DNA of 64,000 bases, taken from assembly GCA_964016885.1 (NCBI GenBank), contig OZ024741.1:16306001-16370000 (forward strand), in the 5' to 3' direction. Shown here in pieces: positions 28,529 through 29,906 of this stretch. The position numbers and the translations under genes were made by a program. The stretch is from Eledone cirrhosa. Its lineage: Eukaryota. The notes below the pieces were generated by a model. That model worked only from the letters and a program-made list of their open reading frames with translations. It did no database searches and was not told the DNA's origin. Numbering within the stretch: position 1 is the stretch's first letter; every line of letters starts with the position of its first letter.

Positions 28529-28609
<81 letters not shown>

Positions 28610-28861
28610 ATAAATTAACGGAGGCATAGGCCTTCGCTATTCCCTGTAAATAATGTGCTCAAAGGAGAAGAGATCCTGAGTTCTTTAAAATATAATATGT
28701 TGAAAAGGTAACACACCAGAGAGAGATATACAGTGCGTTATCAATAATACAGGGAAAAAAACCACCAGTGTATGGAATCTATAACCTATGAAAGGCAGAC
28801 TATAGACACGATAATTAAAAATATAAATTAAAGCGTAAATAAATACCTCTATAACTATATA

Positions 28862-28941
28862 ACACACGTACAAATCCAAAGATATGTTTCACCAATAATT
28901 TGTTGAAAGAAATGGGCTAGTCTCGGTTCATCAGCGTGTGT
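28862..28941 (-). ncRNA. Type I HHR (inverted arm)
   Basis: ACACACG-CTGATGA-ACCGA...TTGGT-GAA-ACATATC TTTG GATTTGT-A^-CGTGTGT. Confidence 0.85.
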
Positions 28942-29080
28942 AAGGCTATACATTTCAGACAACACTAAGAGAATTTTAAAATTGACTGTCCAGCTACACG
29001 TGGGAGAGAGAAGTCACAGCGTGTTTAAGGGCAGTGAACCAGTGGCCTCTGAGGGACGAACTGCTAGAAAGGGCAGCCTT

Positions 29081-29160
29081 ACATACGCTGATGAACCGAG
29101 ACTAGCCCATTTCTTTCAACAAATTATTGGTGAAACATATCTTTGGATTTGTACGTGTGT
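29081..29160 (+). ncRNA. Type I HHR, unit 1
   Basis: 7-bp stem I, canonical core, extended stem III, GUA triplet ending at 29153. Confidence 0.85.
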
Positions 29161-29621
29161 TATATAGTTATAGAGGTATTTATTTACGCTTTAATTTATA
29201 TTTTTAATTATCATGTCTATAGTCTGCCTTTCATAGGTTATAGATTCCATACACTGGTGGTTTTTTTCCCTGTATTATTGATAACGCACTGTATATCTCT
29301 CTCTGGTGTGTTACCTTTTCAACATATTATATTTTAAAGAACTCAGGATCTCTTCTCCTTTGAGCACATTATTTACAGGGAATAGCGAAGGCCTATACCT
29401 CCGTTAATTTATCGTGATATTTCGCTCCTAATAACAGTCTTTCCTATCTCTGTTTGGTTAAGCACACTTCTCTGAGTGGCTTTGGGCTGCCCTTTCTAGC
29501 AGTTCGTCCCTCAGAGGCCACTGGTTCACTGCCCTTAAACACGCTGTGACTTCTCTCTCCTACGTGTAGCTGAACAGTCAATTTTAAAATTCTCTTAGTG
29601 TTGTCTGAAATGTATAGCCTT

Positions 29622-29701
29622 ACACACGCTGATGAACCGAGACTAGCCCATTTCTTTCAACAAATTATTGGTGAAACATATCTTTGGATTTGTACGTGTG
29701 T
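29622..29701 (+). ncRNA. Type I HHR, unit 2
   Basis: As above; GUA triplet ending at 29694. Confidence 0.85.
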
Positions 29702-29866
29702 TATATAGTTATAGAGGTATTTATTTACGCTTTAATTTGTATTTTTAATTATCGTGTCTATAGTCTGCCTTTCATAGGTTATAGATTCCATACACTGGTG
29801 GGTTTTTTCCCTGTATTATTGATAACGCACTGTATATCTCTCTCTGGTGTGTTACCTTTTCAACAT

Positions 29867-29906
<40 letters not shown>

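Follow-up and report, generated by a model that had tools for sequence, protein, structure and literature searches.

Does the tandem hammerhead array at this locus of the Eledone cirrhosa genome represent a mobile, retrozyme-like element, or is it an ordinary tandem of pLTRs belonging to the PLE whose ORF adjoins it? The initial annotation allowed both readings ('retrozyme-like or tandem-pLTR'). We examined the window (the whole 64,000-nt stretch of DNA that was analysed) and searched the 3.0-Gb genome for related copies. At the locus, two (TA)n tracts, on the left the insertion target (28532-28601) and on the right a second tract (29874-29906), flank two arms arranged head to head. The direct arm (29075-29873, plus strand, 799 nt) holds 1.48 units, that is, unit positions 1-541 followed by 1-258, where 29075-29615 serves as the 541-nt reference unit; its repeated parts (29075-29332 and 29616-29873) are 98% identical at a period of 541 nt. 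The inverted arm (28602-29078, minus strand, 477 nt) covers unit positions 411-541 and 1-346 and is 99% complementary to the unit. Each arm has its 3' end on the outside: the direct arm ends at 29873, which we call the short (S) end, and the inverted arm at 28602, the long (L) end. The two arms meet at 29075-29078 in a 4-nt microhomology, AGCC. The 541-nt tandem, the inverted arm crossing the unit junction and the AGCC overlap that had been reported from a first look at the sequence are real, and the arm length given there as about 475 nt is 477 nt when measured; two coordinates shift slightly, the inner end of the inverted arm being equivalent to 29485 rather than 29486 and the direct arm ending at 29873 rather than 29869. 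It had also been seen that the inverted arm reaches further 3' than the last direct copy, but not that this overshoot is a fixed, family-wide PLE 'tail' of 88 nt, which in the direct arm lies at 29333-29420, from the S site (29332) to the L site (29420).

Three CUGAUGA..GAAA cores were found, at 29088(+), 29629(+) and 28934(-). The core and stems I-III are present in all three copies, giving one type I fold per tandem unit: copy 1 at 29081-29160(+), copy 2 at 29622-29701(+) and the fold in the inverted arm at 28862-28941(-), with its core from 28934 and its predicted cut at 28869/28868. In each copy stem I has 7 pairs; stem III has 7 pairs including one U.U mismatch and is closed by the loop UUUG, and the weak stem II (5 pairs, two of them G.U) carries an oversized loop II of 27 nt. 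GUA triplets place the predicted cuts after 29153 (copy 1) and 29694 (copy 2), 541 nt apart, which bears out the cuts and the 541-nt monomer (29154-29694, plus strand) predicted earlier. The monomer holds no credible ORF, again as first noted: read as a circle, its longest ATG-started frame is 32 codons and its longest stop-to-stop frame 70. A search of Rfam at gathering and E-value thresholds found no hammerhead at the window locus. Across 20 copies 91% of the stem cells are paired; the covariation score of the stems equals that of its shuffles, with no compensatory double change. For the 86-nt motif the active fold is 1.1 kcal/mol less stable than the best one, and it becomes rarer in longer contexts, with an equilibrium share of at most 0.3% in nearest-neighbour models; a competing hairpin traps the GAAA in the predicted fold, and the circular monomer folds barely better than its shuffles (z -1.8). 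Monomeric self-cleavage of the hammerhead is a prediction, and a plausible one. The unit also contains, near 29477-29511, words that we take to resemble A and B boxes; a Pol III promoter at this place was considered and then rejected in view of the several T runs within the unit. Contigs of two sequencing runs, of unrecorded kind, confirm family variants only.

The ORF beside the array belongs to a host. The 5' UTR of an older Hydra-clade PLE has its left part beside the array at 28478-28531 (plus strand) and resumes on the right (29907-31171, plus strand), outside the hammerhead element, with the rest of the UTR and a broken RT ORF in three pieces whose ATG, at 29967, stands 60 nt beyond the right TA tract. 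The host family has the motifs RW[KR], DKT and CxCx5C, which are marks of Hydra clade PLEs (PMC8557442, excerpt); Pfam returned nothing significant on the host ORF pieces. Among the best 40 host copies in the genome most are about 87-92% identical to the window copy, and in six of the eight paralogues checked a short TA stretch runs uninterrupted where the array sits. Given these empty sites, the array is not the pLTR of this unrelated and older Hydra-clade element but was inserted later into its 5' UTR. The same empty sites, together with the older age of the host, whose copies are 88-92% identical to one another, rule out the neighbouring ORF as the hammerhead element's own.

The window holds a number of further repeats. 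At 17223-18523 there is a second, unrelated hammerhead array with a 428-nt period, made of 2.3 minus-strand units and an inverted arm, with a short stem III and cores at 17526, 17954 and 18309. More head-to-head palindromic insertions, probably further PLE ends, lie by TA tracts at 27698-28334, 31934-32479 and 32857-33130, and there is a degenerate hammerhead core at 32140(-). A local duplication (40253-45011 and 45013-49194, 97%) comes with tRNA genes at 40165, 42443 and 47200 and small hammerheads at 43686, 43782, 44284 and 48472. Pieces of a broken LINE RT/endonuclease ORF, with microsatellites between them, occupy 25348-27386(-) and are presumably RTE-like by their look.

Searching the genome with the unit gave 2581 first-look candidates, and the 40 that were scored match it over whole units at 92-97% identity. 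Exact genome matches of a stem III 20-mer number 582, and its reversed control has none, a count that is not due to chance. Arrays of the family are 3.1% apart (96.9% identical). The window locus is one insertion of a young, dispersed, non-coding family with hundreds of scattered copies. For a closer description of the copies, 79 loci were taken from the first 100 listed matches of the stem III 20-mer outside the window; another 56 came from the first 100 among the 222 matches of a second 20-mer outside the ribozyme. Ends were assigned to strict classes, S at unit positions 250-264 and L at 338-347. Simple two-armed insertions, with an inverted arm placed head to head, make up 80 of the 135 loci (68 with one S and one L end, 12 with one other end), next to 41 one-armed loci and 14 that are more complex; the complex loci are left out of the S/L count, and the duplicates L120, L244, L249 and L260 out of the variant counts. 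The exact arm ends at classified loci (201) fall at position 346 in 86 cases, at 258 in 65 and at 262 in 11, and a TA run lies within 14 nt of 180 of the 187 S/L ends. The ends are joined to TA and are not LTR-like; the 3' ends are fixed and the 5' ends ragged.

These end statistics contradict the view that recombination amplified the family as a satellite or a DNA-level repeat. In favour of such a process, array L004 contains three identical units, but the arrays are short and dispersed on many chromosomes, and this dispersal, with the empty site in the host PLE paralogues, marks the family as mobile; TA targets and two-armed polarity likewise argue against a satellite, which we regard as extremely improbable. 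The longest array reaches 4.4 units, with no ORF, and 11 of 79 arms in the second sample are longer than one unit. In that longest array (L014) two variants alternate from unit to unit, which hints at a dimer template or a later duplication of two units. A subfamily (L111, L117, L123, L138, L152, L164) has 555-nt units through a duplication of about 14 nt in stem III. At locus L059 (oriented positions 289 and 830) there is a hammerhead tandem of unrelated sequence whose period is also exactly 541 nt and whose loop II is oversized.

A sister family, with 46 matches at 80-85% identity, has the same ends; its 29 loci include 13 S+L insertions and one L+L (L321). Between the two families the hammerhead, ends and signals differ at 3/102 columns and the rest of the unit at 54/439 (Fisher p 0.004), and none of the 15 columns of the catalytic core has changed. 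On this comparison, the ribozyme, the ends and the hairpins have been spared from change between the young family and its sister. The window itself contains a 5'-truncated copy of the sister family (16453-16772, minus strand) with an L-site end on (TA)n and an expanded AG microsatellite.

The two 3' ends, 258 and 346, are 88 nt apart, and such alternative ends are a feature of PLE tails. They pair strictly: wherever both ends of a two-armed insertion are canonical, one is S and the other L (68 of 68; 42 from the 79 loci and 26 from the 56, with two of them resembling a single duplicated segment), and S+S and L+L do not occur. At the inner junction the arms overlap by 0-5 nt in 41/68. The subfamily agrees between both arms in 68/71, and at polymorphic sites the agreement is 889/959 across arms and 1001/1077 between passes (93%), compared with 55% between arrays. 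Both arms of an insertion thus come from a common source, which can be read from the copies themselves, as can the family with its polarity, its two fixed and strictly paired ends, its TA targets and its conserved hairpins. Private variants at multiply covered sites are common to several copies in one array in 10/183 cases, one of them at the window locus.

An alternative origin of the inverted arm is self-priming, in which one cDNA folds back and an endonuclease cut at the other site makes the second end. Self-priming has been proposed from palindromic junctions (PMC3846280); 44 of the 67 insertions are compatible with fold-back copying, and 11/68 junctions have near-perfect palindromic centres, their two arms starting no more than 10 nt apart in unit coordinates, where 3.8 such junctions would be expected (p 0.001). 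In the other 23/67 insertions, however, neither arm fits inside the other. This holds for the window locus too, where the arm lengths of 477 and 799 nt are not nested in unit positions and fold-back alone therefore cannot make the insertion. Which of the two arms is longer varies (medians 264 and 268 nt). As the origin of the inverted arm in this family fold-back is unlikely, and a minority of insertions may be fold-backs. Separate priming of the two arms from a common RNA remains our preferred reading.

We then consider the form of that RNA. Arms run across the ribozyme cut in 40/67 S arms and 31/67 L arms, counts that include a first sample selected for this; in the unselected sample, 40 of the 42 arms that reach position 84 continue to position 79 or beyond, past the cut. 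The template was therefore continuous there, either as an uncut multimer or as a re-ligated circle. In several arrays (L124, L136, L169, L020) the haplotype changes at multiple sites between successive passes, which argues that a single monomer circle is not the sole template. One possibility is that the same element and enzyme always use an uncut linear multimer, the hammerhead being a passenger and no circle being formed; such an account touches only the processing of the transcript and is compatible with the rest of our explanation. It gains from the haplotype switches, from the weak stem II and its competing folds, and from two published results: ribozyme mutants of the anole PLE leave insertion in vitro unaffected, unprocessed RNA being the main substrate (PMC11167929, excerpt), and 8/9 predicted frog retrozymes showed no cleavage in vitro (preprint 10.64898/2026.07.22.740005, excerpt). 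Against it stand the conservation of the catalytic core and stems relative to the sister family, the 10/183 private variants held by several copies of one array, and a mild enrichment of arm 5' ends just 3' of the cut (unit 77-92, 10 against 2.9 expected, in a window chosen after the fact). A pile-up of 5' ends at the cut was set aside as a weak signal: unit 77-83 has 4 ends against 1.2, an equal hotspot lies at 136-142, and a TATATA palindrome at 87-92 confounds the count. No A>G strand bias of the kind left as scars by RNA editing was found (87 vs 165, expected share 0.38, p 0.33). A template that is always linear is a serious contender, if somewhat short of an even chance; that a circle is the usual template we consider about evenly balanced.

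The remaining question is whether an autonomous PLE with an unsampled full-length master might account for the units, which would then be its ordinary tandem pLTRs and its 5'-truncated, inverted ends. It is standard for PLEs to have pLTRs both in tandem and inverted, and optionally a tail (PMC8557442, excerpt; PMC3846280). Protein searches yielded more than 80,000 Hydra-like candidates, from which intact Hydra ORFs of seven families were seen at 80 ORF loci. The unit serves as pLTR at none of these 80 loci, a result for the seven Hydra families, with Neptune, Poseidon and Naiad ORFs outside the search and divergent helpers possibly missed. The initial annotation had proposed looking for linkage to PLE ORFs elsewhere: in the 600-nt 5' flank, a sense PLE (Hydra) ORF end accompanies 0 of the 41 one-armed copies, while an antisense RT-thumb fragment lies 300 nt from one of them. 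Hydra matches lie within 3 kb of 10/79 loci, none of them adjoining an arm. Since no sense Hydra ORF end stands in the 5' flank of the one-armed copies and two-armed copies leave no room for one, the retrozyme-like reading holds. With arrays of up to 4.4 units lacking an ORF, second-sample arms exceeding one unit and an adjoining ORF that belongs to a host with empty-site paralogues, an unsampled autonomous master is very unlikely.

A GCTC..GAGCAC hairpin stands 3-8 nt past each end, with columns 94-100% conserved. At the window locus the hairpin 3' of the S site (29341-29367, plus strand) departs from this family form by a private G>A at 29341, which the inverted arm has too, and the hairpin 3' of the L site (29424-29465, plus strand) by a G>A at 29460. 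A GCTC..GAGC hairpin is likewise found upstream of the ATG in the five Hydra families examined, among which the 808-aa family F808 has an A-U outer pair in its S hairpin. In F713, an intact Hydra family of 713 aa, the ends lie at -130 and -42 from the ATG, again 88 nt apart, and 14 of 15 two-armed loci are S+L (one is aberrant) among 24 loci; F808 has a tail of 173 nt and is S+L in 3/3. F713 copies are 96.6% identical and element arrays 96.9%, and the two are therefore of similar age. The five Hydra UTRs show no alignable likeness to the unit beyond the hairpin motif (z at most 1.1), and the pairing with F713 therefore rests on geometry. The 88-nt match may be due to chance, seven families having been seen out of more than 80,000 candidates and two tail lengths (88 and 173) checked by real ends. 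F713 is the best candidate helper; that it actually is the helper of this retrozyme we put forward tentatively, as possible rather than probable.

Hammerhead-like folds also occur in the Hydra families. F713 (L302:4159-4290(-) and other loci) has the core CAGAAGA in 42/45 copies, and F808 has CCGAAGA in 26/26, with an oversized stem II. Full-length copies of a 714-aa family (L043-L071) contain two different hammerhead variants, one roughly 270 nt upstream of the ATG and the other some 400 nt downstream of the stop, and whole elements of this family are often in tandem arrays.

Taken as a whole, the element is in our judgement probably a non-LTR retrozyme that a Hydra-type PLE copies in trans, with one cDNA from each internal start site on RNA that is continuous across the cut. 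The enzyme, the cleavage, the circles and a promoter are elements of the scheme that we infer. A source array would be transcribed through several units, and the hammerhead may cut the transcript into 541-nt monomers that could be re-ligated into circles. A Hydra-type RT/GIY-YIG protein, probably a dimer, would bind both GCTC..GAGC hairpins on the RNA and nick both strands of a (TA)n tract. The cDNA primed by one nick would start at the S site (258) and that from the other nick at the L site (346), each site always being used once. Both cDNAs would extend toward the RNA 5' end, often past the ribozyme cut and sometimes through several units, before their far ends are joined by a few bases of microhomology. 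We have good confidence in the central part of this scheme, namely that a dimer of a Hydra-type protein starts one cDNA on each strand, at S and at L, and that microhomology joins the two. Rather doubtful is the more specific version in which F713 is the helper, its dimer reading the twin hairpins by their family-specific 88-nt spacing, making one cDNA per strand from each hairpin of the same RNA and rolling round a ligated 541-nt circle.

Much of this agrees with known systems. Self-cleavage and circle formation are established for retrozymes of coral, mussel and axolotl, and PLEs have been proposed as their helpers (PMC7229834, excerpt), and non-LTR retrozymes derive from PLEs (preprint 10.64898/2026.07.22.740005, excerpt). 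According to the excerpts of both sources, metazoan non-LTR retrozymes resemble the window family in being built of non-coding units in tandem, with one type I hammerhead in each, in having a G+C content under 50% and in coexisting with PLEs; they are described there as having no LTR, PBS or PPT, in keeping with the TA-joined ends seen here. The 541-nt unit falls within the preprint's range of 51-972 bp (excerpt) and is longer than the retrozyme circles demonstrated experimentally, 170-400 nt in the excerpts of the same two sources. Compared with the retrozymes in these excerpts, the window family differs in its 27-nt loop II and in consisting mostly of 1-2 units, with two head-to-head arms and two fixed ends.

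Hydra PLEs, for their part, target (TA)n and carry hammerheads (PMC8557442, excerpt). Like the window family, elements of this clade, which have a C-terminal endonuclease, show a hammerhead near the 3' end, an inverted 5'-truncated copy and a tail at one end, and the window family, F713 and F808 have the same signal hairpins and S+L rule. The same excerpt gives the Hydra-clade tail as 30-40 nt, against 88 nt in the window family, which also lacks an ORF, and lists Hydra hammerheads with a stem III of 3-4 pairs and a loop II of 3-10 nt, in contrast to the long stem III and oversized loop II here. In vitro, the protein of the Poseidon PLE of the green anole cuts and extends both target strands, and two internal RNA start sites define the tail; the protein is predicted to be a dimer, ribozyme cleavage is not needed and targets are AT-rich (PMC11167929, excerpt). 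That element belongs to another clade, and in the excerpt its start sites do not differ between strands and no pairing within a single insertion is reported, whereas here each insertion uses one site per end; its signal is an AC-rich stem-loop inside the ORF.

Non-LTR retrozymes, their PLE origin, inverted pLTRs with optional tails (PMC8557442, excerpt; PMC3846280) and two PLE start sites are thus already published. A literature search, with subscription journals, Repbase and the preprint's supplementary tables outside its scope, returned no strict S+L rule, twin hairpin or cephalopod retrozymes, and the agreement with an intact family at exactly 88 nt adds a lead. The locus is a test case and a candidate pairing, not a new phenomenon, and its family is one of several such families in the genome. 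It bears on how retrozymes are copied and on the inverted arms and one-sided tail of PLEs, for which PLE help and rolling-circle copying are, in the excerpts of the publications cited, proposed and not demonstrated. Both questions can be tested in the existing in vitro PLE assay, since the two start sites on the 541-nt RNA are mapped, its two hairpins are small and an intact candidate helper has the matching geometry. If the pairing is true, F713 and this retrozyme would be the first named retrozyme-helper pair, and a rule of two-site, two-strand priming would explain the one-sided tail of PLEs.
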